Part shown: positions 5,760-32,505 of the stretch, in pieces
Layout of the letters: every line of letters starts with the position of its first letter
Numbering within the stretch: the stretch's first letter is position 1
Sequence record: OR567511.1
Length of the DNA stretch: 64,000 bases
Reading direction: 5' to 3' (one strand)
Origin: Enterobacter phage vB_Ent31
Program-made: the position numbers and the translations under genes
Notes under the pieces: model-generated
What the model saw: the letters and a program-made list of their open reading frames with translations, nothing else
What the model was told of the DNA's origin: nothing
The model's database searches: none

Positions 5760-5962
5760 TAAGAATCGACAGCACCACCCACTGGCAGATGGTCTGCAGA
5801 TGTTCATTCCCAGCGACTCGGAGGCATCAGTCTCGCCACTGGAAATATAGCGCCGTGGAGGTTATGCTTGCGACAGGGAACAACCGACTAGCGGCAATGG
5901 AAAACCATTCTCTTCTAACACGACGTCTCAACGAGGGCATACGCAAGTTTCCCTTCGAATTT

Positions 5963-6037
5963 GGTGCCGATTGCAGGAGTCGAACCCGCGGCATCTTCAT
6001 TACAAGTGAAGCGCTCTACCAGCTGAGCTAAATCGGC
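5963..6037 (-). tRNA. tRNA-Thr (anticodon UGU)
   Basis: Reverse complement GCCGATT..CTTCA-CTTGTAA-TGAAG..GCGGG-TTCGACT-CCTGC-AATCGGC folds as a cloverleaf with a 7-nt loop. T4 also encodes tRNA-Thr. Confidence 0.75.
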
Positions 6038-6039
6038 TT

Positions 6040-6135
6040 AAGACGGAAATAAGGATTCGAACCTTATGTAGTTGCACAGACGTATCTGCCGTTGAATTCC
6101 TCACTAAGTTTAAGCAACTATTCCCGGGGTCTTAA
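6040..6135 (-). ncRNA. tRNA-like element; the acceptor stem cannot be resolved
   Basis: Has a perfect T-arm (ATAAGG-TTCGAAT-CCTTAT), but no 5' strand complementary to the 3' end was found. Possibly a class II tRNA or a stable RNA like T4 species 1/2 (rnaC/rnaD). Confidence 0.3.
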
Positions 6136-6140
6136 TTTGG

Positions 6141-6222
6141 TGCATCAAGAGGGATTCGAACCCTCAATCCTTTCGGCGGAAGATTTTAAGTCTTCTGTGT
6201 ATACCAGTTCCACCATTGATGC
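6141..6222 (-). tRNA. tRNA-Leu (anticodon UAA), class II with a long variable arm
   Basis: Acceptor GCATCAA/TTGATGC with TGG (CCA) encoded. Anticodon arm GAAGA-CTTAAAA-TCTTC. T-arm GAGGG-TTCGAAT-CCCTC. T4 also has Leu(UAA). Confidence 0.6.
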
Positions 6223-6231
6223 GAAATTTGG

Positions 6232-6313
6232 AGCTAGGAGTGAGATTCGAACTCACGAAGGGATACCCGGCGGATTTGCAATCCGCTGCCTTTGGCCACT
6301 CAGCAACCCTAGC
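6232..6313 (-). tRNA. class II-type tRNA with anticodon GCA (formally Cys); atypical
   Basis: Acceptor GCTAGGG/TCCTAGC. Perfect anticodon arm GCGGA-TTGCAAA-TCCGC. 13-nt variable region. T-arm GTGAG-TTCGAAT-CTCAC. Confidence 0.45.
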
Positions 6314-6320
6314 AAATTGG

Positions 6321-6395
6321 TCGAGGTAGAGGGATTCGAACCCGTCGACCTGTGGATTAGAAGTCCACTGCTCTATCCAGCTGAGCTATACCCCG
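6321..6395 (-). tRNA. tRNA-Arg (anticodon UCU)
   Basis: Acceptor CGGGGTA/TACCTCG with CCA encoded (6318-6320). Anticodon arm GTGGA-CTTCTAA-TCCAC. T-loop TTCGAAT. Confidence 0.7.
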
Positions 6396-6396
6396 A

Positions 6397-6523
6397 GTGT
6401 GTTCAGACAGGACTCGAACCTGTAAGCATGTTCTTGCGGCGTTTTACCACCATCGTCAGCGTATGATTCAATACGCGAACTCAAAAGGTGTTGGACCCCT
6501 TGTCTACCAATTTCAGCACTGAA
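6397..6523 (-). ncRNA. ~127-nt tRNA-like stable RNA candidate
   Basis: The 3' part has a T-arm (ACAGG-TTCGAGT-CCTGT) and acceptor strand CTGAACA. Its complement TGTTCAG lies about 120 nt upstream, which is too long for a tRNA. The size matches T4 species 1/2 RNAs (rnaC/rnaD). Confidence 0.3.
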
Positions 6524-6535
6524 CAACTTTATTTA

Positions 6536-6763
6536 TTACATATCAACTTGTGTAAACCAGTTGATTTTGAAATACTCATCAAAATGAAGAGCAGGCTCAA
6601 CTTGAGTATCCTCCTCAAGAAGAATTAAATTCTTTCTTACAAGAGGGTCAAGATGAGTTGTGTTTAAGCAACTATCATGCCAATATGTAAGTACTCTATT
6701 AGATTCGGCGGTATCAACAAGATAACGAACATTCATATCAGGATGTCGGTACAGATTAATCAT
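6536..6763 (-). CDS. hypothetical protein (75 aa)
   Basis: ORF only. Confidence 0.35.
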   Translation of the reverse strand: MINLYRHPDMNVRYLVDTAESNRVLTYWHDSCLNTTHLDPLVRKNLILLEEDTQVEPALHFDEYFKINWFTQVDM

Positions 6764-6766
6764 AAT

Positions 6767-7216
6767 CTATTTCTCTTGAAGCATTTTGCGTAAACGATAG
6801 AGCTGATTACAAAATTCTTTTTCAGTCAAAACTGTTTCGGAGATTTTGTTCTTGCCCATACTGTGAGTTAATGTTGCGTTACGAGTGGCAATTAATGCTT
6901 TTTGGAATCCAGTGTTTTGAGAAAGTGCATCATATGCTCCAGTTAAAAGATTCTGGTATGCTTCAGATGCTCGATGAATAGGAACACCCTTCCAATAAAG
7001 GGTTTGAGTAGGCCACCAACGTTTCTTCTTGCCTTTGAACTTTGCTGCCTTTCCAACTAAAGTGCAAACATGAGCTTGCATTTCAGGGTTAGAAAATTTG
7101 AGGGATTGTAAGAATCCCTCCATTGATGCACATTCTACATCATCGTAAACGAAAGCATGTGGTGCAAAGTTACTTAAAGCACAAGAAGGATATGAACTTC
7201 CAGAGCCAATGTCCAT
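6767..7216 (-). CDS. NADAR / YbiA-like (DUF1768) domain protein
   Basis: The N-terminal motif ALSNFAPHAFVYDDVECASMEGFLQSLKF matches the NADAR hallmark (SNF...F.YDGV.Y.S.EH.FQA.KF). Size is 149 aa. Confidence 0.5.
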   Translation of the reverse strand: MDIGSGSSYPSCALSNFAPHAFVYDDVECASMEGFLQSLKFSNPEMQAHVCTLVGKAAKFKGKKKRWWPTQTLYWKGVPIHRASEAYQNLLTGAYDALSQNTGFQKALIATRNATLTHSMGKNKISETVLTEKEFCNQLYRLRKMLQEK

Positions 7217-7447
7217 TTAATTACCGTGAGATATTCTAGAAGGTTTCTTACCAAAATAATATTCATATGAGCCATCTAAACGACCTGCTTTAGTGCGGCA
7301 ATATGAATCCCGTTTCTTATAATGCCGCCATTCATCATTGTATCTTGGACGACGGTCAGCGATTAAAATCTCTAATGGCCAACCAGGCGCAAAGGAACGG
7401 AGCCGTTCGACTTTTCTAATGTATCTTTTCTTTAAGATTTTCTTCAT
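7217..7447 (-). CDS. small basic hypothetical protein (76 aa)
   Basis: ORF only. Lys/Arg-rich. Confidence 0.35.
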   Translation of the reverse strand: MKKILKKRYIRKVERLRSFAPGWPLEILIADRRPRYNDEWRHYKKRDSYCRTKAGRLDGSYEYYFGKKPSRISHGN

Positions 7448-7665
7448 ATAGATTCCGACATTACGTGAGTAGTTCTCTTTCTGATTGTAAATTGAGTTAA
7501 TTCATCAACTTCACCACAACGCCAAGCGTCATCTTCAGTTTCAAAACCAAGAGCCTCAAATAGGTTACCTAAACGCCAACCTTCGTCAAACTCGGGGTCT
7601 CCTGAAAAATAGTAATAGTAATCGGCAGTTACTAAATCTTGAATTACAAAATCAAACTTTTCCAT
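7444..7665 (-). CDS. hypothetical acidic protein (73 aa)
   Basis: ORF with ATGA coupling. Confidence 0.35.
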   Translation of the reverse strand: MEKFDFVIQDLVTADYYYYFSGDPEFDEGWRLGNLFEALGFETEDDAWRCGEVDELTQFTIRKRTTHVMSESI

Positions 7666-8162
7666 CAGATACTTACCACAGTAATAGCTTCAGGAGCTTT
7701 AGGAATAACGATATCTTCTTCGATGTAGAAGAGCTTAAATTTTTCAGCTACACGCATGAAGTCAGTATCATAACCAACTGGAGTTCCAATCAATTCTTGG
7801 ATTTTATCCATCACTTTATACTGAACTTGATAGAAATCTTCAAGACGAGCATCGAATTCATCTTCAGTATAATTGCCTTCTGGGATTACAAAGCCAAGCA
7901 CTTCTGAACAGAACTCTGGAGTGATTTCTTCATTTTCAACACAATATTCAAAGAAAGCATCACCGGAATAATCTTCGTTACCCATTCCATTAGGGTCTGA
8001 ATTATCAGACGCGAAACATTTCGCAACGGCACACCAACCTGAAATGTGTCTAGCATTTACATTATAAATCACATTCTCTTGATAATCATCGCCGTCGTTT
8101 TCCCATGATACACATGATACTGCATAGCCTTTAGGGATAGTTTGACCAAAGCGGAGTTCCAT
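7665..8162 (-). CDS. hypothetical acidic protein (165 aa)
   Basis: ORF only. Confidence 0.45.
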   Translation of the reverse strand: MELRFGQTIPKGYAVSCVSWENDGDDYQENVIYNVNARHISGWCAVAKCFASDNSDPNGMGNEDYSGDAFFEYCVENEEITPEFCSEVLGFVIPEGNYTEDEFDARLEDFYQVQYKVMDKIQELIGTPVGYDTDFMRVAEKFKLFYIEEDIVIPKAPEAITVVSI

Positions 8163-8172
8163 AATATTTCCT

Positions 8173-8577
8173 TCAATTAAATGGTGGAAGTGGTTTCATG
8201 TACAAATCTATCAACATACGCCATTTAGCAATTACTTCAGCATACGTATCATTGCATAAAAATCGTGTGATGTCAGAATAATCAATTGCTGGTAGCGGAG
8301 TTAAATGATTCATCAATTCGCGAGGAAATTGATTAAAGCATTTCATCATATCTTTGTAAACATAATCAAGTAAGTCTTGAACAGAGAAGAACTCAGTGTT
8401 TCGTCCTTCTTTGGAATACCGATATTTCAGAAATTTCCAATGGCCGGAGTCTCTGTCTTGAGTGAATGCGTAGTCACTATGTAACATGACATTACGAACT
8501 AAATCTTCAGAGAAGAAGATGGAGTGAGTGCAACCATAATAAATCATAATATTTTCCTCAGAATTTGGTGGCCCCAT
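8173..8577 (-). CDS. hypothetical protein (134 aa)
   Basis: ORF only. Confidence 0.45.
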   Translation of the reverse strand: MGPPNSEENIMIYYGCTHSIFFSEDLVRNVMLHSDYAFTQDRDSGHWKFLKYRYSKEGRNTEFFSVQDLLDYVYKDMMKCFNQFPRELMNHLTPLPAIDYSDITRFLCNDTYAEVIAKWRMLIDLYMKPLPPFN

Positions 8578-8641
8578 CCGGATTCGAACCGAAAACCTAC
8601 CAGTTATGAGCCGGGTGCTCTACCAATTGAGCTATAGGGCC
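8569..8641 (-). tRNA. tRNA with anticodon CAU (Met, or Ile2 if lysidine-modified as in T4 tRNA-Ile)
   Basis: Acceptor GGCCCTA/TGGGGCC with CCA encoded. D-arm GCTC-AATTGGTA-GAGC. Anticodon loop CTCATAA. T-loop TTCGAAT. Isolated between protein genes. Confidence 0.6.
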
Positions 8642-8665
8642 AAAGTCCTCCGAAGAGGACGAATG

Positions 8666-8890
8666 TTATTCAACCATGAAATCTGCTACTTCATCAAAGT
8701 CGTTATCAATAACAACAGTAAATGGCAGAGCTTCATCGCTTGTTTTGATAGTCAGCTTAACGAAGCCATCGACAGTTTCAACCAAACCTACAATTTTATC
8801 AGAACGTACTACAGCACGAGCTACGTCAACAATTTTACCAGTCAGTGCAAATGTAGCGATTTGGTTAACTTCAACAACGATACGTTTCAT
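8666..8890 (-). CDS. hypothetical protein (74 aa)
   Basis: ORF only. Confidence 0.35.
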   Translation of the reverse strand: MKRIVVEVNQIATFALTGKIVDVARAVVRSDKIVGLVETVDGFVKLTIKTSDEALPFTVVIDNDFDEVADFMVE

Positions 8891-8931
8891 TCTTTTTCCT
8901 TAGTGGTTTTGATGTAGTAATAATAACATCA

Positions 8932-9489
8932 TTATTTTAAAGCGTAATATCTGAACGGATTGATATGAAATGATAACATTGCTCTGTCATTCTTTTCAGG
9001 CTTATCAACTTCAGATTTCAGTTTCCACCCACAGTAAACTCGTAAGCAGAATTGAATTTTTCCAATTTTAAGCCAAGGCTGATATCCAAATACACCCCAA
9101 GCTGATTCATTCCACATAAGCAACCAACCGTTAGATTTACCGTTAGATTCTACAGTCGGATTGCCCTTCCATTTAAACTCTGAAGTAGCTTCTCGTCCAA
9201 GAACATAATAAGCAAAGTTATATGCTTTATTTCGCCATAGCCATGCTACGCGTTGCATATATTTTCCAACGATCGGAATTTTACGAATCTTTTCCCAGCG
9301 CTTAACATGACCGCCATCTCCGTCAATTGGATTATCAAATGTCATCATCCAATTGAATCCATATGGAAGTTTTCCGCTAACTTCATTATAGAATGGAACT
9401 ACAAATGGAGCAAGCAAAATAGCTAGCACGCCAGTAATCCAATCAAGTGGTACAAGAACAATATAACTTAAGTATTTTAGCAGTTTCAT
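8932..9489 (-). CDS. membrane protein (N-terminal TM helix); start set to MKLLKYLSY
   Basis: The longer track ORF would overlap tRNA-Phe. The internal ATG at 9489 is preceded by AAGGAG. Confidence 0.5.
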   Translation of the reverse strand: MKLLKYLSYIVLVPLDWITGVLAILLAPFVVPFYNEVSGKLPYGFNWMMTFDNPIDGDGGHVKRWEKIRKIPIVGKYMQRVAWLWRNKAYNFAYYVLGREATSEFKWKGNPTVESNGKSNGWLLMWNESAWGVFGYQPWLKIGKIQFCLRVYCGWKLKSEVDKPEKNDRAMLSFHINPFRYYALK

Positions 9490-9559
9490 AGTAGTCTCCT
9501 TTGACACTCTATTTATGCTAAAAAGCCCGAACAGATTTCTCTGCTCGGGCGTTGTTTGG

Positions 9560-9631
9560 TGGGAAGTGTTGGAATCGAACCAACCTCTCATGCTCTTCAG
9601 GCACGCGCTAATCCATCTCAGCTAACTTCCC
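9560..9631 (-). tRNA. tRNA-Phe (anticodon GAA)
   Basis: Acceptor GGGAAGT/ACTTCCC with CCA encoded. Anticodon arm CGTGC-CTGAAGA-GCATG. T-arm GTTGG-TTCGATT-CCAAC. Confidence 0.75.
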
Positions 9632-9635
9632 TTGG

Positions 9636-9709
9636 TCTCCATACGAGGATTTGAACCTCGGACCCTCTGGTCCCAAACCAGATGCTCTACCAGACTGAGC
9701 TACACGGAG
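9636..9709 (-). tRNA. tRNA-Pro (anticodon UGG)
   Basis: D-arm GCTC-AGTCTGGTA-GAGC. Anticodon arm TCTGG-TTTGGGA-CCAGA. T-arm CGAGG-TTCAAAT-CCTCG. CCA encoded. Confidence 0.7.
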
Positions 9710-9806
9710 ATATTTTTCAGGATGGACGCCACTCTACATTTATGGGTCGAGTCTCCATCATAAAACGTCACGGTCCTCGGCGATTTTCCGTGGTCTGAAA
9801 ATTTGG

Positions 9807-9878
9807 AGCATCCAGAGAGAATCGAACTCTCATCTACTGGGTGGAAGCCAGTCATAATAGCCGCTATACGATGGATGC
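9807..9878 (-). tRNA. tRNA-Gly (anticodon UCC)
   Basis: Acceptor GCATCCA/TGGATGC. Anticodon arm ACTGG-CTTCCAC-CCAGT. T-arm GAGAG-TTCGATT-CTCTC. CCA encoded. Confidence 0.7.
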
Positions 9879-9886
9879 AAATTTGG

Positions 9887-9958
9887 CAGGCCCTGAAGGA
9901 ATCGAACCCTCATCACTGGGTTTGGAGCCCAGCATAATAGCCGTTATACTAAGAACCT
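9887..9958 (-). tRNA. tRNA-Trp (anticodon CCA)
   Basis: Anticodon arm CTGGG-CTCCAAA-CCCAG. T-loop TTCGATT. Acceptor has two G-U pairs. CCA encoded. Confidence 0.65.
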
Positions 9959-9967
9959 GTTATTTGG

Positions 9968-10040
9968 TGGGAGTAACTGGACTCGAACCAGTCACCGCTC
10001 GATTATCGGTCGAGAGCTCTACCAAATGAGATATACTCCC
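9968..10040 (-). tRNA. tRNA-Ile (anticodon GAU), copy 1
   Basis: Acceptor GGGAGTA/TACTCCC. Anticodon arm CTCGA-CCGATAA-TCGAG. T-arm ACTGG-TTCGAGT-CCAGT. CCA encoded. Confidence 0.7.
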
Positions 10041-10109
10041 ATGGAAAGCTAATCATCTAATTGTTGATGTACCACTGCTATGGACAGTGTTTAACTTTCA
10101 TAAATTTGG

Positions 10110-10191
10110 CGGAGAGTAAAGGAGTTGAACCCTCACCGTTTCCGATGGCCCGGATTTCAAGTCCGGTTTGCTACCACTAGCGCTACTCTCC
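10110..10191 (-). tRNA. tRNA-Ser (anticodon UGA), class II
   Basis: Acceptor GGAGAGT/ACTCTCC. Anticodon arm CCGGA-CTTGAAA-TCCGG. 16-nt variable arm. T-loop TTCAACT. CCA encoded. T4 has Ser(UGA). Confidence 0.7.
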
Positions 10192-10197
10192 AGTATT

Positions 10198-10283
10198 TGG
10201 TGAAGGAAGTGTCATATAGACACAATTCGCTTAGCGACAGCCACAGCGTTTTGCGGGCCGTGTATTTTTCCACCATTCCTTCA
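10198..10283 (-). ncRNA. tRNA-like element with a perfect acceptor stem and CCA, but no canonical T-loop
   Basis: Reverse complement is TGAAGGA...GTGTC-TATATGA-GACAC-TTCCTTCA-CCA. The 7-bp acceptor is perfect, CCA is encoded, and it is about 86 nt long. The T-loop is TATATGA instead of TTCRAAT. Confidence 0.3.
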
Positions 10284-10290
10284 TTGTTGG

Positions 10291-10363
10291 GGTGACCGGA
10301 CGGATTTGAACCGTCGACGGCAGCAATCACAATGCTGAGTTCTACCAACTGAACTACGGCCAC
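10291..10363 (-). tRNA. tRNA-His (anticodon GUG)
   Basis: Anticodon arm TCAGC-ATTGTGA-TTGCTG. T-arm GACGG-TTCAAAT-CCGTC. Acceptor GTGGCCG/CGGTCAC. CCA encoded. Confidence 0.65.
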
Positions 10364-10458
10364 ATCAATATTCACTCCATCATGAGGACTTCATACGAAA
10401 TTAAGAGAAGAATGATTAGTTCAACCCCTGTAGACGCGTTGAATGAATATTAATTTGG

Positions 10459-10530
10459 CTGGACTATCTGGATTCGAACCAGAGATACCGGAGTCAAAGG
10501 CCGGTGACTTAACCGCTTGTCTATAGTCCA
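10459..10530 (-). tRNA. tRNA-Gln (anticodon UUG)
   Basis: Acceptor TGGACTA/TAGTCCA. Anticodon arm CCGGC-CTTTGAC-TCCGG. T-arm TCTGG-TTCGAAT-CCAGA. CCA encoded. Confidence 0.6.
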
Positions 10531-10539
10531 ATTGTTTGG

Positions 10540-10613
10540 AGGCGGGTGATGGACTCGAACCATCGCGTAACGGGATATGAACCCGTCATTCTACCAACTG
10601 AAGTTAACCCGCA
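10540..10613 (-). tRNA. tRNA-Met (anticodon CAU) with initiator-like features
   Basis: Anticodon arm ACGGG-TTCATAT-CCCGT has three G-C pairs next to the loop. Positions 1-72 are mismatched (T opposite C). T-arm GATGG-TTCGAGT-CCATC. CCA encoded. Confidence 0.6.
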
Positions 10614-10773
10614 TTTATCCGGGTTCTTGAAGTACTAACAAGTAGCTTGATGTAGAACACGCTAAAGATATAATCTTCCGAATATAGAGCTTATCCCGTG
10701 GGAACAAACAGCTTCGTCCTCGGCATTATCTTATAGGACTCAAACTCATCTTCAAGAACTGCCTCATATTTGG

Positions 10774-10847
10774 CAGTGCTGACGGGTTTCGAACCCGCGA
10801 TCTCTCCCGTGACAGGGGAGTGTCTTGACCATCTCGACTACAGCACT
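10774..10847 (-). tRNA. tRNA-Asp (anticodon GUC)
   Basis: Acceptor AGTGCTG/CAGCACT. Anticodon arm CTCCC-CTGTCAC-GGGAG. T-arm GCGGG-TTCGAAA-CCCGT. CCA encoded. Confidence 0.75.
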
Positions 10848-11096
10848 ATAAATTTACTTTCGTGAGTATGGGATTACCCTCAAGCCTTCCGGAAAGCTGA
10901 ATAGGCGTTATTGGCTCTCATATACCCGTGCACAGATATAATCTTCATTAACACAATAACTTCATCAATATACTCCGAAAGTAAACTTTCGGCGCCGTAT
11001 TTAATTTGAGCTATGTGGTTATCGTTGAGGGAACTCATAGTCAGGGATTAAAGTGCCGACGACTTTGTCAGAACGTCTTCCAACTTCTATATTTGG

Positions 11097-11178
11097 CGGG
11101 TCGTGCAGGTATCGAACCTGCCTAGTCATTTCTGACACGGATTAACAGTCCGCCGCTTACCCTCTCAGCCAACGACCC
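11097..11178 (-). tRNA. class II-type tRNA with anticodon GUU (formally Asn); atypical
   Basis: Acceptor GGGTCGT/ACGACCC. D-stem 3 bp. Anticodon arm GCGGA-CTGTTAA-TCCGT. 15-nt variable arm with stem GTCA/TGAC. T-arm GCAGG-TTCGATA-CCTGC. CCA encoded. Confidence 0.5.
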
Positions 11179-11186
11179 TAAATTTG

Positions 11187-11259
11187 GTTCTCCGTAAGAG
11201 AATTGAACTCTTCTTTCCGACGTGAAAGGTCGGCGTCCTAACCGATAGACGAACGGAGA
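11187..11259 (-). tRNA. tRNA-Glu (anticodon UUC)
   Basis: Acceptor TCTCCGT/ACGGAGA. Anticodon arm CCGAC-CTTTCAC-GTCGG. T-arm AAGAG-TTCAATT-CTCTT. CCA encoded. Confidence 0.75.
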
Positions 11260-11263
11260 TTGG

Positions 11264-11337
11264 TAGGACACGAAAGATTCGAACTTTCGACACCCGGATT
11301 AAAAGTCCGGTGCTCTAACCAGCTGAGCTAGTGTCCT
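11264..11337 (-). tRNA. tRNA-Lys (anticodon UUU)
   Basis: Acceptor AGGACAC/GTGTCCT. Anticodon arm CCGGA-CTTTTAA-TCCGG. T-arm GAAAG-TTCGAAT-CTTTC. CCA encoded. Confidence 0.75.
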
Positions 11338-11378
11338 GTAGATATTTATAATATCAAAAATATCTTTAAGCAAATTGG

Positions 11379-11451
11379 TGGGAATAACTGGACTCGAACC
11401 AGTGACCTAACGATTATCGGTCGTTTGCTCTACCAACTGAGCTATATTCCC
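11379..11451 (-). tRNA. tRNA-Ile (anticodon GAU), copy 2
   Basis: Acceptor GGGAATA/TATTCCC. Anticodon arm AACGA-CCGATAA-TCGTT. T-arm ACTGG-TTCGAGT-CCAGT. CCA encoded. Confidence 0.7.
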
Positions 11452-11460
11452 GGAATTTGG

Positions 11461-11545
11461 TGGGGAGTGATGGAGTCGAACCACCCGAGTCGCAATGACA
11501 ACAGATTTACAGTCTGCACCGCTACCTCTACGGAATTAACTCCCC
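11461..11545 (-). tRNA. tRNA-Tyr (anticodon GUA), class II
   Basis: Acceptor GGGGAGT/ACTCCCC. Anticodon arm GCAGA-CTGTAAA-TCTGT. Long variable arm. T-arm GGTGG-TTCGACT-CCATC. CCA encoded. Confidence 0.75.
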
Positions 11546-11550
11546 GAAAT

Positions 11551-11910
11551 TTATTTAAGAACTGTAGAATTCATGGACTTAACCAAGAAAACTTGATGTG
11601 GCGAACGAAGTGAACCTTCAATATAACGATGTTCTGGAAATCGTGTTGAAGTTTGGAAACCAGCTATACGATAACCTTGTTCAGTCCAACCCAAAAGTAT
11701 ACCAACCATGCATCCAGAAGTTTTTCCGCCTTTATCAAAGGCTACAATATCACCAGGAGCAATTTCATTACCCATTGAATCAGGCTTAATCCATTGTGGA
11801 GTAACCAGTTCTATAGGTATATTTATACCGCTTGAAAATTCGTAGTATTCGTCAGAACGAAGACCTTTGATATCATTAAACAGTTTGTTCCAGGTGTTGC
11901 TGATGCTCAT
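11551..11910 (-). CDS. hypothetical protein (119 aa)
   Basis: ORF ending next to tRNA-Tyr. Confidence 0.4.
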   Translation of the reverse strand: MSISNTWNKLFNDIKGLRSDEYYEFSSGINIPIELVTPQWIKPDSMGNEIAPGDIVAFDKGGKTSGCMVGILLGWTEQGYRIAGFQTSTRFPEHRYIEGSLRSPHQVFLVKSMNSTVLK

Positions 11911-31092: not shown

Positions 31093-32505
31093 ATGTCAAC
31101 TATTGATTTAACTCCCCTTCCTTACGTCAACGGCCTTCCGGATGAAGGCCAATCTCGTGTGAACTGGATTAAAAATGGCGAGGAATTAACAGGAGCATCC
31201 ACCAAGAATGGTGTAGACGGTAATTTGAACCGTGGACCTGTACAGGTCCAACAAAACGTGGAAGTGCTCGACGGGAATATCGTAGTTGTCCGTGATTCTC
31301 TTGAGCAATCAAATGTAAGAATTAAGAATGTCGAGGATGCCCTAGGAGTCATTGGGGATGTCGATGTTGTCAAACAAATAGGTATTAACACATCTGCAAT
31401 TAAAGTTCTCCAGAGTGACACAGAGGGACTTAAAACCACATCAGATGACCATGGTCTGCGTATAACTCACATCGAAGAAGATGTAGGTGAATATGACCCG
31501 TCACGTGATTCTGTTTATCGTCCAGTTCGTGAAGACTTGCTTTGGATTAAAACTGAGTTAGGCGCTTATCCAGGCCAAGACATCAACGGTATGTCTATTC
31601 CTATGGCTCCGGCGTTAGGTTTGAAGAAGCGTGTTATTGACACTGCTAAAGTTGTAAATGATAACTCAATTCGTATCGCTAATATTGAAAAACAATTCAA
31701 TGACTCAGATGTTGGTTCATTAACGATTGAAGTCCAAAACCTTCGAAATGAAATGGGTTCAAGAGCATCTGCTGGTATTGATAGTGTTTACGTTCGTTTG
31801 AACAAAATGAATGGAACTATTAGTACTTTAGCAATGGACATGGAAAATGTTTTAGATTCGATTGGGTATAACAATGGAGTTATCGATTTACACAACTTGG
31901 TTGTAATAAACCGCGATGCAATCACCGAGGTTAATCGTAAATTAAGTGACCCTACAATAGGATTAATTCCTCGTGTAGATTTAATTGAATCAGCTATCGG
32001 AAAAGATTCTCAGCCGTCAAGCATCAACGGAAGAATTAAAATTAACCGTGATGAAATTACAGCTCTTAAATCTATTGTTGGTGCAGATACTTCGTCTGGT
32101 TTACGTGGACAAGTTGCATGGATTAACCAAGTAGTTGGTATTAATGAAAGCGGAACTCCTGCTCCGTCTAATTCTTTAATTGGACAAATTAATACTTTGA
32201 CTACCATGCAAAACCAAATGGCTAATACCATTCAGGATATCCAGGTAGATATTGGTAACAATAACGAAGGTTTAAAAGGCCAAGTAATTCGTTTAAATAG
32301 TCTTGTAATGGGTACAAACCCTAACGGTGCTACTGTTGAAGAAAGAGGACTTTTAAACGTAGCAAAAACTCAAGACACTGATATTTCAAATATTAAAACC
32401 GAACTTCAAAACTTAATTCCAGAAGCTCCTCGTGATGGAAAAGCTTATGTTCGTAAAGACGGTGCTTGGGTCGACTTAGACACCATTCTTAATCCTACTC
32501 CATAA
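31093..32505 (+). CDS. wac: fibritin (whisker antigen control)
   Basis: Start MSTIDLTPLPYVNGLPDEGQSRVNWIKNGEE. C-terminal foldon-like IPEAPRDGKAYVRKDGAWVDL, as in T4 Wac. Confidence 0.85.
   Translation: MSTIDLTPLPYVNGLPDEGQSRVNWIKNGEELTGASTKNGVDGNLNRGPVQVQQNVEVLDGNIVVVRDSLEQSNVRIKNVEDALGVIGDVDVVKQIGINTSAIKVLQSDTEGLKTTSDDHGLRITHIEEDVGEYDPSRDSVYRPVREDLLWIKTELGAYPGQDINGMSIPMAPALGLKKRVIDTAKVVNDNSIRIANIEKQFNDSDVGSLTIEVQNLRNEMGSRASAGIDSVYVRLNKMNGTISTLAMDMENVLDSIGYNNGVIDLHNLVVINRDAITEVNRKLSDPTIGLIPRVDLIESAIGKDSQPSSINGRIKINRDEITALKSIVGADTSSGLRGQVAWINQVVGINESGTPAPSNSLIGQINTLTTMQNQMANTIQDIQVDIGNNNEGLKGQVIRLNSLVMGTNPNGATVEERGLLNVAKTQDTDISNIKTELQNLIPEAPRDGKAYVRKDGAWVDLDTILNPTP

Follow-up and report, generated by a model that had tools for sequence, protein, structure and literature searches.

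The DNA analysed here is a stretch of 64,000 nucleotides from Enterobacter phage vB_Ent31 (sequence record OR567511.1; hereinafter the window), a T4-like phage (Straboviridae, Tevenvirinae, Karamvirus) whose nearest records are the Enterobacter phages EnC07, PG7 and CC31. Within a large cluster of tRNA genes on the minus strand, ARAGORN calls a tRNA-Met with the anticodon CAU (10537-10613, minus strand; 77 nucleotides including an encoded CCA), which is matched by the Rfam tRNA model at 10541-10612 with 44.1 bits (gathering score 29). From comparative sequence analysis we conclude, with moderate confidence, that this gene encodes a functional initiator-type Met tRNA, which in T4-like phages (Karamvirus and relatives) corresponds to the formylmethionine tRNA (tRNA-fMet) of phage T5.

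Read 5' to 3' as RNA, the 5' strand of the acceptor stem (10607-10613) consists of U1 (10613) and GCGGGU (positions 2-7) and is followed by U8 and A9. The D arm (10588-10604) comprises A10 (10604), a bulged C (10603), UUC (11-13; 10602-10600), the loop AGUUGGUA and GAAU (22-25; 10591-10588). Beyond G26, the anticodon stem is formed by ACGGG (27-31; 10582-10586) and CCCGU (39-43; 10570-10574) and encloses the loop UUCAUAU (10575-10581) with the anticodon at 10579-10577. The segment UACGC leads to the T arm (10548-10564; GAUGG, loop UUCGAGU, CCAUC) and to the 3' strand of the acceptor stem (10540-10547), which includes ACCCGC (66-71; 10547-10542), C72 (10541) and the discriminator U73 (10540), with CCA at 10539-10537. 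Two features of this cloverleaf had been singled out in an earlier note on the DNA, which placed a CAU tRNA at 10540-10613, and both are borne out. The gene is real, the given range covering tRNA positions 1-73; the three G-C pairs beside the anticodon loop are G29:C41, G30:C40 and G31:C39 (hereinafter GGG/CCC); and U1 lies opposite C72, with which no pairing is possible.

The mismatch depends on the register in which the acceptor stem is read. The Rfam alignment is one base off: it takes G for position 1, leaves 66 empty and makes C the discriminator. This register, which entails a deletion at 66, an A at position 8, a CCA that is not adjacent, and an acceptor stem of only six pairs with position 7 unpaired, was rejected. 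All 19 tRNAs called by ARAGORN in the window encode an N73-CCA end, and the tRNA-Met fits this pattern only in the ARAGORN register. We accepted that register because of the encoded CCA, the canonical U8, the covariation of 7:66, 6:67 and 5:68 among homologues and the costs of the Rfam alternative; the same CCA, U8 and covariation rule out the error of acceptor assignment that the earlier note had named as a possible source of a spurious mismatch. In the D stem, we gave up the ARAGORN register (a C11·A24 mismatch and a 9-nucleotide loop; 75% paired) for one in which a base is bulged (100% paired) and in which the canonical A14, G18, G19 and A21 are regained and G15 and C48 are placed for the usual tertiary pair.

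As a reference for initiator identity, 120 loci from bacteria and archaea were sampled, which yielded 57 distinct bacterial initiators. All 57 have a GAGC/GCU(C/U) D stem, that is, A11:U24 and G12:C23, and A73, and their 1:72 positions are C·A, C·U, U·U, A·A, U·G or U:A. This accords with the analysis of bacterial tRNA-fMet by Silva et al. (2006; PMC1635315), in which A11:U24 is present in about 100%, C1·A72 in 98.5% and GGG/CCC in 85%. The vB_Ent31 tRNA shares with bacterial tRNA-fMet the CAU anticodon, the lack of a Watson-Crick 1:72 pair, G2:C71 together with C3:G70, and the three G:C pairs, although its 1:72 bases (U·C) differ from the usual C·A. Among the 19 ARAGORN tRNAs of the window, it alone has a non-Watson-Crick 1:72, and GGG/CCC is shared only by tRNA-Trp(CCA) (9884-9958, minus strand), which has these pairs at 29-31:39-41 together with a normal A1:U72. 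In elongator tRNA-Met, a Watson-Crick 1:72 pair is needed for EF-Tu binding. The vB_Ent31 tRNA departs from the elongator profile by its consistently unpaired 1:72 and its conserved GGG/CCC; U11:A24 (Y11:R24) is an elongator-like trait. Judged by its sequence, it is not a canonical bacterial tRNA-fMet.

The gene is widespread in phages. BLAST finds identical or similar sequences in 227 phage records from Karamvirus, Winklervirus, Jiaodavirus, Kanagawavirus, Kagamiyamavirus, Mosugukvirus and Marfavirus as well as from Klebsiella phages such as KPV15 and Mineola; the hosts of these phages include Klebsiella, Enterobacter, Citrobacter, Serratia, Erwinia and Pectobacterium. No match was obtained when 5,426 E. 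coli genomes were searched by BLAST and, therefore, no host tRNA can be named as the source. In an alignment of 16 distinct homologues from T4-like enterobacterial phages, including a divergent one from an environmental contig (L044), 94.9% of the cells of the cloverleaf are paired and 11 pairs are changed on both sides, a result reached by 0 of 500 shuffles, whereas slid controls are 42-50% paired. Each of the four stems shows compensatory changes. The number of records and the paired, covarying cloverleaf together indicate that this tRNA is under selection.

Both initiator hallmarks are part of what is conserved. The 1:72 position is non-standard in 16 of the 16 homologues (mostly U·C; EcS1 and Gravdalen have A·C, and L044 has A·A), while acceptor pairs 2-7:66-71 covary, with compensatory changes at 7:66 (U:A to G:C and the reverse), 6:67 and 5:68; G2:C71 is present in all 16 sequences and C3:G70 in 15. 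In the anticodon stem, 27:43 and 28:42 covary, G30:C40 and G31:C39 are invariant, and G29:C41, hence the complete GGG/CCC, is kept in 14 of 16. The exceptions are Gravdalen, with A·C at 29:41, and PM2, with A29:U41, which is a natural variant of alpha-proteobacterial and chloroplast initiators (PMC1635315). The T arm is 100% paired, with compensatory changes at three of its five pairs. The D stem with its bulge is likewise 100% paired over the 16 sequences, with covariation at 10:25 (A:U and C:G) and 11:24. The single bulged nucleotide itself (C at 10603 of the window, A in some homologues), located between 10:25 and 11:24 in all 16, is unusual in a tRNA core. U38 is invariant, and position 32 is U or C. 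A U73-CCA end is found in 14 of the 16 sequences, with A73 in L044 and in Klebsiella phage vB_KpnM_Lion_ER11, which has no encoded CCA; the Lion_ER11 gene (61-135 of its locus, L013) diverges directly after C72 (CCGCC-AAAT). The divergent homologue (L044, 6590-6666) combines A11:U24, A73 and A1·A72 with the same bulged D stem, and the family thus appears to be derived from a more canonical initiator-type ancestor.

The two hallmarks are also associated beyond this family. Viral contigs of IMG/VR were scanned with the pattern GGGTTCATAWCCC...GGTTC, which forces U32, and at least 120 loci were found; the counts that follow concern the matches listed and represent associations, not frequencies, and some of the contigs with a single tRNA may be prophage ends carrying host tRNAs. 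A 1:72 mismatch is present in 79 of 107 CAU tRNAs with GGG/CCC (74%) and in none of the 13 CAU tRNAs lacking it. Among the non-CAU tRNAs at these loci, the mismatch and GGG/CCC each occur in 4 of 287 (1.4%); against this background and that of the other tRNAs of the window, the two features of the vB_Ent31 tRNA go beyond chance. Thus, GGG/CCC and the 1:72 mismatch travel together in phage CAU tRNAs, as selection for initiator function predicts. The viral CAU tRNAs with GGG/CCC are themselves variable: A11:U24 is kept in 64 of the 107 and the full bacterial GAGC/GCUC D stem in 45, and a discriminator other than A73, found in 0 of the 57 bacterial initiators, is present in 23 of the 51 initiator-like tRNAs that encode CCA, in at least eight lineages. 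These non-A73 discriminators are mostly U73 (loci L017-L136, for example, L020, L037, L042, L062, L103, L123 and L134). Elongator-type phage tRNA-Met from IMG/VR environmental contigs (L257-L283) mostly have U1:A72, lack GGG/CCC and usually carry the loop UUCAUAU, so that U32 and U38 are not specific to initiator-like phage tRNAs.

The window contains a second CAU tRNA (8566-8641, minus strand), with the acceptor stem GGCCCUA/UGGGGCC, A73 and CCA; in its anticodon stem, C27 and U43 are mismatched. The C4:G69 and C5:G68 pairs that it carries have a role in recognition by TilS. BLAST matches this tRNA to the E. coli CAU tRNA-Ile of the ileX type (Ile2). The two pairs are frequent in tRNA-Ile genes with the CAT anticodon (PMC1635315). 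For a quantitative comparison, entropy-weighted surrogate covariance models were built from the bacterial sample, with 52 sequences for fMet, 17 for elongator Met and 23 for Ile2. The training sequences were selected by a pattern in which CUCAUAA and a standard T loop are obligatory; accordingly, U32 and U38 are penalised alike by all three models, and the training sets are uninformative on how often bacterial initiators deviate at positions 32 and 38. All three E. coli controls were assigned correctly: metZ scores 102, 75.8 and 63.8 bits with the fMet, Met and Ile2 models, respectively, metT 58.8, 83.3 and 81.9, and ileX 58.1, 81.2 and 90.9. The second CAU tRNA (8569-8641), for which the earlier note had left elongator Met and a lysidine-type Ile2 as options, scores 56.5, 64.7 and 76.1 bits, which supports the latter, and the tRNA-Met gene is therefore the only candidate Met tRNA of the phage. 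The tRNA-Met itself (10540-10613) scores 48.3, 52.4 and 41.1 bits. Its Ile2 identity was rejected given G4:C69, G5:C68, U73 and the lowest score with the Ile2 model, and the choice between fMet and Met is ambiguous on these scores. Subtraction of the Met from the fMet score leaves -4 bits for this tRNA and -1 to -10 for its homologues; those ordinary elongators of the window with the best scores under these models give -7 to -16, and E. coli tRNA-Met gives -24. On the Met model, the tRNA-Met is outscored by several tRNAs of the window that are not Met tRNAs.

An initiator role would involve the following steps. The tRNA would be transcribed from the minus strand within a multi-tRNA precursor and excised by the RNase P and 3' nucleases of the host, with CCA already encoded. 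Host methionyl-tRNA synthetase (MetRS) would be expected to charge it with methionine via the CAU anticodon, which is sufficient for the E. coli enzyme (PMC9976931). The unpaired 1:72 together with G2:C71, C3:G70 and G4:C69 would then permit formylation by the host formyltransferase (Fmt) and disfavour EF-Tu and peptidyl-tRNA hydrolase, and the three G:C pairs would promote entry into the P site. The main Fmt determinants are the 1:72 mismatch with G2:C71 and C3:G70, clustered in the acceptor stem (PMC5389676, PMC6265465). The GenBank record of T5 (AY543070) annotates three CAU tRNAs, namely, tRNAM, tRNAI2 and 'tRNAfM (CAU), initiator tRNA fMet' (32428-32505), and the acceptor stem of the vB_Ent31 tRNA matches that of tRNAfM, not that of tRNAM. 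Because the Fmt determinants are located in the acceptor stem, this shared design is the best argument for formylation, and we infer from it that the vB_Ent31 tRNA could be formylated despite U73. Charging, formylation and use in the P site are thus predicted from the features of the tRNA, and the likely value to the phage would be sustained initiation during infection when host tRNA-fMet is limiting or is hit by toxins directed at tRNA-fMet.

Several observations weigh against this interpretation. A11:U24, which is named as an Fmt element (PMC9976931) and which the earlier note proposed as a check, is absent: in place of A11:U24 and G12:C23, the tRNA has U11:A24 and U12:A23 (or C11·A24 in the ARAGORN register). 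The discriminator, fixed by the encoded CCA, is U73, whereas A73 is present in 57 of the 57 bacterial initiators. Hence the initiator-like character that the note had proposed holds for the two signatures it cited, which are real and conserved in the family, but does not extend to A11:U24 or A73. With all scores low, the surrogate fMet model ranks 4 bits below the elongator Met model; the covariance-model check thus did not return fMet, although a 4-bit gap does not mark a clear elongator either. A naive position-specific profile places the tRNA about 60 bits nearer to Met than to fMet, owing to the D arm, D loop and variable loop; we discount this result because the fMet training set is nearly invariant, so that any divergent tRNA is heavily penalised. 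ARAGORN finds no second, elongator-type Met tRNA in the tRNA set of the window, and since the phage tRNAs cover 18 amino acids, an elongator Met might be expected instead. Outside the acceptor stem, BLAST in either direction does not link this family to that of T5 tRNAfM. Finally, that the formylmethionine tRNA reported for T5 in 1975 is the product of the annotated tRNAfM gene is our inference.

The mixture of features might instead reflect a dual function, an explanation that we consider unlikely: U73 and the missing A11:U24 would leave the tRNA only partly formylated, the formylated share initiating via IF2 and the rest being carried by EF-Tu to internal AUG codons. The acceptor end and the three G:C pairs are initiator-like and U11:A24 and the D loop elongator-like; the fMet and Met scores are nearly tied; and, the other CAU tRNA of the window being Ile2-like, the phage has this tRNA alone for Met, a combination of one Ile2-like and one hybrid Met tRNA that recurs in related phages and the environmental contig L044. 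The single mitochondrial tRNA-Met works in this manner, and E. coli is viable on one partly formylated tRNA-fMet mutant that binds both IF2 and EF-Tu (PMC6265465). However, the published dual-function mutants all pair 1:72, and the U1:A72 mutant is reported to be a poor elongator (PMC6265465), whereas the mismatch of the phage tRNA is strictly kept and should weaken EF-Tu binding. Moreover, T5, with the same acceptor design, has a separate elongator tRNA-Met, and the host still supplies elongator tRNA-Met.

An ordinary elongator tRNA-Met that completes the elongator set of the phage, with the 1:72 mismatch and GGG/CCC as inherited or tolerated quirks, appears distinctly improbable given how rare and how persistent these features are. 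Each is found in only 1.4% of the listed non-CAU phage tRNAs, and this tRNA has both; both are conserved over many genera although position 1 switches from U to A; and a single mutation, either U1 to G or C72 to A, would be enough for a 1:72 pair but is never seen in the 16 homologues. The elongator Met model does score highest (52.4 versus 48.3 bits), Y11:R24 and the D loop are elongator-like, GGG/CCC recurs in the tRNA-Trp of the phage, and isotype models are often inconsistent on phage tRNAs (PMC12482277). Against this stand the fMet-minus-Met gap of -4 bits, compared with -7 to -16 for true elongators of the window and -24 for E. coli tRNA-Met, and the acceptor stem, which is that of T5 tRNAfM. 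A role outside translation, as a decaying pseudo-tRNA or as a decoy for a host toxin or nuclease aimed at tRNA-fMet, is very improbable. It could be suspected from the Rfam score, which is among the lowest of the cluster, from the bulged D stem and a U73 that is atypical for Met, and from the label 'tRNA-Pseudo-CAT' given to the T5 counterpart in one record, but decay does not agree with compensatory changes in all four stems, a conserved CCA end, canonical T loop, G18 G19, U8, A14 and G15:C48 positions, and a gene kept in 227 genomes. A decoy would still require a tRNA-like fold, and conservation of the fold is compatible with it. Both the plain elongator and the non-translational role fit the conservation pattern poorly, and a phage-encoded initiator-type tRNA is the interpretation that we prefer.

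What such an initiator might do for the phage can be considered in relation to toxins that attack tRNA-fMet. According to the part of PMC8522696 that cites Winther & Gerdes 2011, enteric VapC toxins cleave tRNA-fMet in the anticodon stem-loop, and the invariant U38 of the phage tRNA falls in this region. Acetylation of Met-tRNA-fMet by AtaT is weaker after replacement of C1-A72 by A1-C72 or G1-C72, and the authors suggest that a purine at 72 helps AtaT (PMC7595197); the phage tRNA has C72 and U73. Carriage of this tRNA as a means to evade tRNA-targeting attack is a speculative idea. It is in line with the proposal that phage tRNAs evade tRNA-targeting defences, made in a paper that reports a general avoidance of tRNA-fMet genes by enteric phages (PMC10264068); the latter conclusion may be partly due to isotype callers missing divergent phage initiators. 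In its broadest form, which we offer only tentatively and regard as rather unlikely, the proposal is that T4-like (227 genomes) and T5-like (about 400) phages carry 'stealth' initiator tRNAs that isotype callers miss and that are re-tooled at sites read by toxins (U38 and the pyrimidines at 72 and 73), sustaining initiation under VapC-type nucleases and GNAT acetyltransferases (AtaT, KacT). Under this proposal, the single Met tRNA of T4-like phages might also serve elongation. If true, it would contradict the published avoidance of tRNA-fMet by enteric phages (PMC10264068).

More generally, if the tRNA works as an initiator, sequenced phages of Klebsiella, Enterobacter, Serratia and Citrobacter that number in the hundreds, some of them candidates for phage therapy, would bring their own start tRNA, hidden by the label 'tRNA-Met', and the finding bears on the view that phage tRNAs outlast host tRNA attack. 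The family is also a natural experiment on initiator identity, in which the 1:72 mismatch and three G:C pairs are kept and A11:U24 and A73 are dropped, and allows a direct test of what MetRS, the formyltransferase, EF-Tu and IF3 require. More than 200 genomes already carry the gene under the annotation tRNA-Met; its recognition as an initiator-type tRNA with an unusual mix of features may be new.

The gene is embedded in a cluster of 20 tRNA genes on the minus strand (5962-11545), of which 19 are called by ARAGORN and one more by Rfam (11461-11545; Tyr in EnC07). A block of 15 of them (9525-11545), from Tyr (11461-11545) to Phe (9557-9631), includes the tRNA-Met; tRNA-Gln begins 6 nucleotides past its CCA, and the Met-Gln adjacency is kept in other phages. 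Directly after tRNA-Phe there is a strong terminator-like hairpin (9550-9525, minus strand; 11 pairs followed by TTTTT), and a promoter-like site is located upstream of tRNA-Tyr (11620-11649, minus strand); these two consensus matches would bracket a predicted transcription unit of 15 tRNAs. Ten open reading frames in and around the cluster were compared with PHROGs, yielding only families of unknown function, with one frame lacking a match, and Rfam at a permissive threshold detected no further RNA in the cluster. Two tRNAs of 85 nucleotides combine long, class-II-like variable arms with class-I anticodons, namely, 'Asn' (GUU, G73; 11094-11178, minus strand) and 'Cys' (GCA, U73; 6229-6313, minus strand). 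For the Asn-type tRNA there are matches in 634 phage records, T5-like phages among them, and any label given is tRNA-Asn. To our knowledge, long variable arms in bacteria are confined to Leu, Ser, Tyr and Sec tRNAs; SerRS reads the long arm and G73. Finally, tRNA-Ser(UGA) (10107-10191, minus strand) scores 32.3 bits with the Rfam tRNA model, just above the threshold, has a weak two-pair D stem in the ARAGORN call and, in the permissive search, scores 36.5 bits with the tRNA-Sec model, which is higher than with the tRNA model and under the Sec cut-off of 47.

Compared with known systems, the vB_Ent31 tRNA is close to E. coli tRNA-fMet (metZWV, metY) in overall architecture: both have 77 nucleotides with CCA and align without gaps, and they share CAU, G2-G6/C67-C71, the unpaired 1:72 and G29-G31:C39-C41. 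The E. coli tRNA, however, has C1·A72 and A73 in place of U1·C72 and U73, a GAGC/GCUC D stem (A11:U24, G12:C23) in place of A[C]UUC/GAAU, the anticodon loop CUCAUAA (C32, A38) in place of UUCAUAU (U32, U38), and the T loop UUCAAAU in place of UUCGAGU. The dual-function tRNA-Met of mammalian mitochondria and the E. coli tRNA-fMet variants with an altered acceptor stem (Govindan et al. 2018, PMC6265465) are alike in providing one Met tRNA per genetic system and, as in the phage tRNA, mix initiator and elongator features and have weakened formylation determinants; unlike the phage tRNA, they have a paired 1:72, and both normal Met tRNAs are still available from the host of the phage, so that a dual role is not forced on its tRNA. 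Calls of tRNA-fMet genes by tRNAscan-SE have been published for jumbo and huge phages (PMC7760394, PMC10747093). These and the initiator-like tRNAs of IMG/VR share with the vB_Ent31 tRNA the combination of CAU, GGG/CCC and a 1:72 mismatch, and those of IMG/VR often also have an altered anticodon loop (U32, often U38) and a non-A discriminator, although most of the matches listed differ in keeping A11:U24. Since such viral tRNAs are abundant and an initiator is annotated in T5, a phage initiator tRNA is less noteworthy than the earlier note had supposed.

The closest parallel is T5 itself. Chen et al. (PNAS 1975; cited in PMC4810235) refer in their title to a formylmethionine-specific tRNA coded by T5, and a review lists both tRNA-Met and tRNA-fMet among the T5 tRNAs; given this report, the vB_Ent31 tRNA is a further example of a phage-encoded initiator, not the first, and extends a known phenomenon without opening a new one. 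T5 tRNAfM (10429-10506, minus strand, in its locus, L285) is present in about 400 T5-like records, where it is labelled 'tRNA-Met' or 'tRNA-Pseudo-CAT', so that automatic annotation under-reports phage initiators. It reads UGCGGGU UA GAUC ... GAUC G CUAGU CUCAUAA GCUAG ... ACCCGC U72 U73 CCA. Its D, anticodon and variable regions differ from those of the vB_Ent31 tRNA. In particular, T5 tRNAfM keeps A11:U24 and, of the three G:C pairs, only G30:C40 (with A29:U41 and U31·G39), whereas the vB_Ent31 tRNA has all three, U11:A24 and the bulged D stem; the anticodon loops are CUCAUAA and UUCAUAU, and position 72 is U in T5 and C in vB_Ent31. T5 also has a separate elongator tRNA-Met, which the T4-like phage lacks. 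On the surrogate models, T5 tRNAfM scores 49.5 bits (fMet), 45.4 (Met) and 35.9 (Ile2), and both tRNAs are thus low and ambiguous by bacterial standards and are automatically annotated as plain tRNA-Met. Nevertheless, both are CAU tRNAs encoded within large phage tRNA clusters and have an identical acceptor stem (U1, GCGGGU/ACCCGC), a pyrimidine-pyrimidine mismatch at 1:72, U73 and an encoded CCA.

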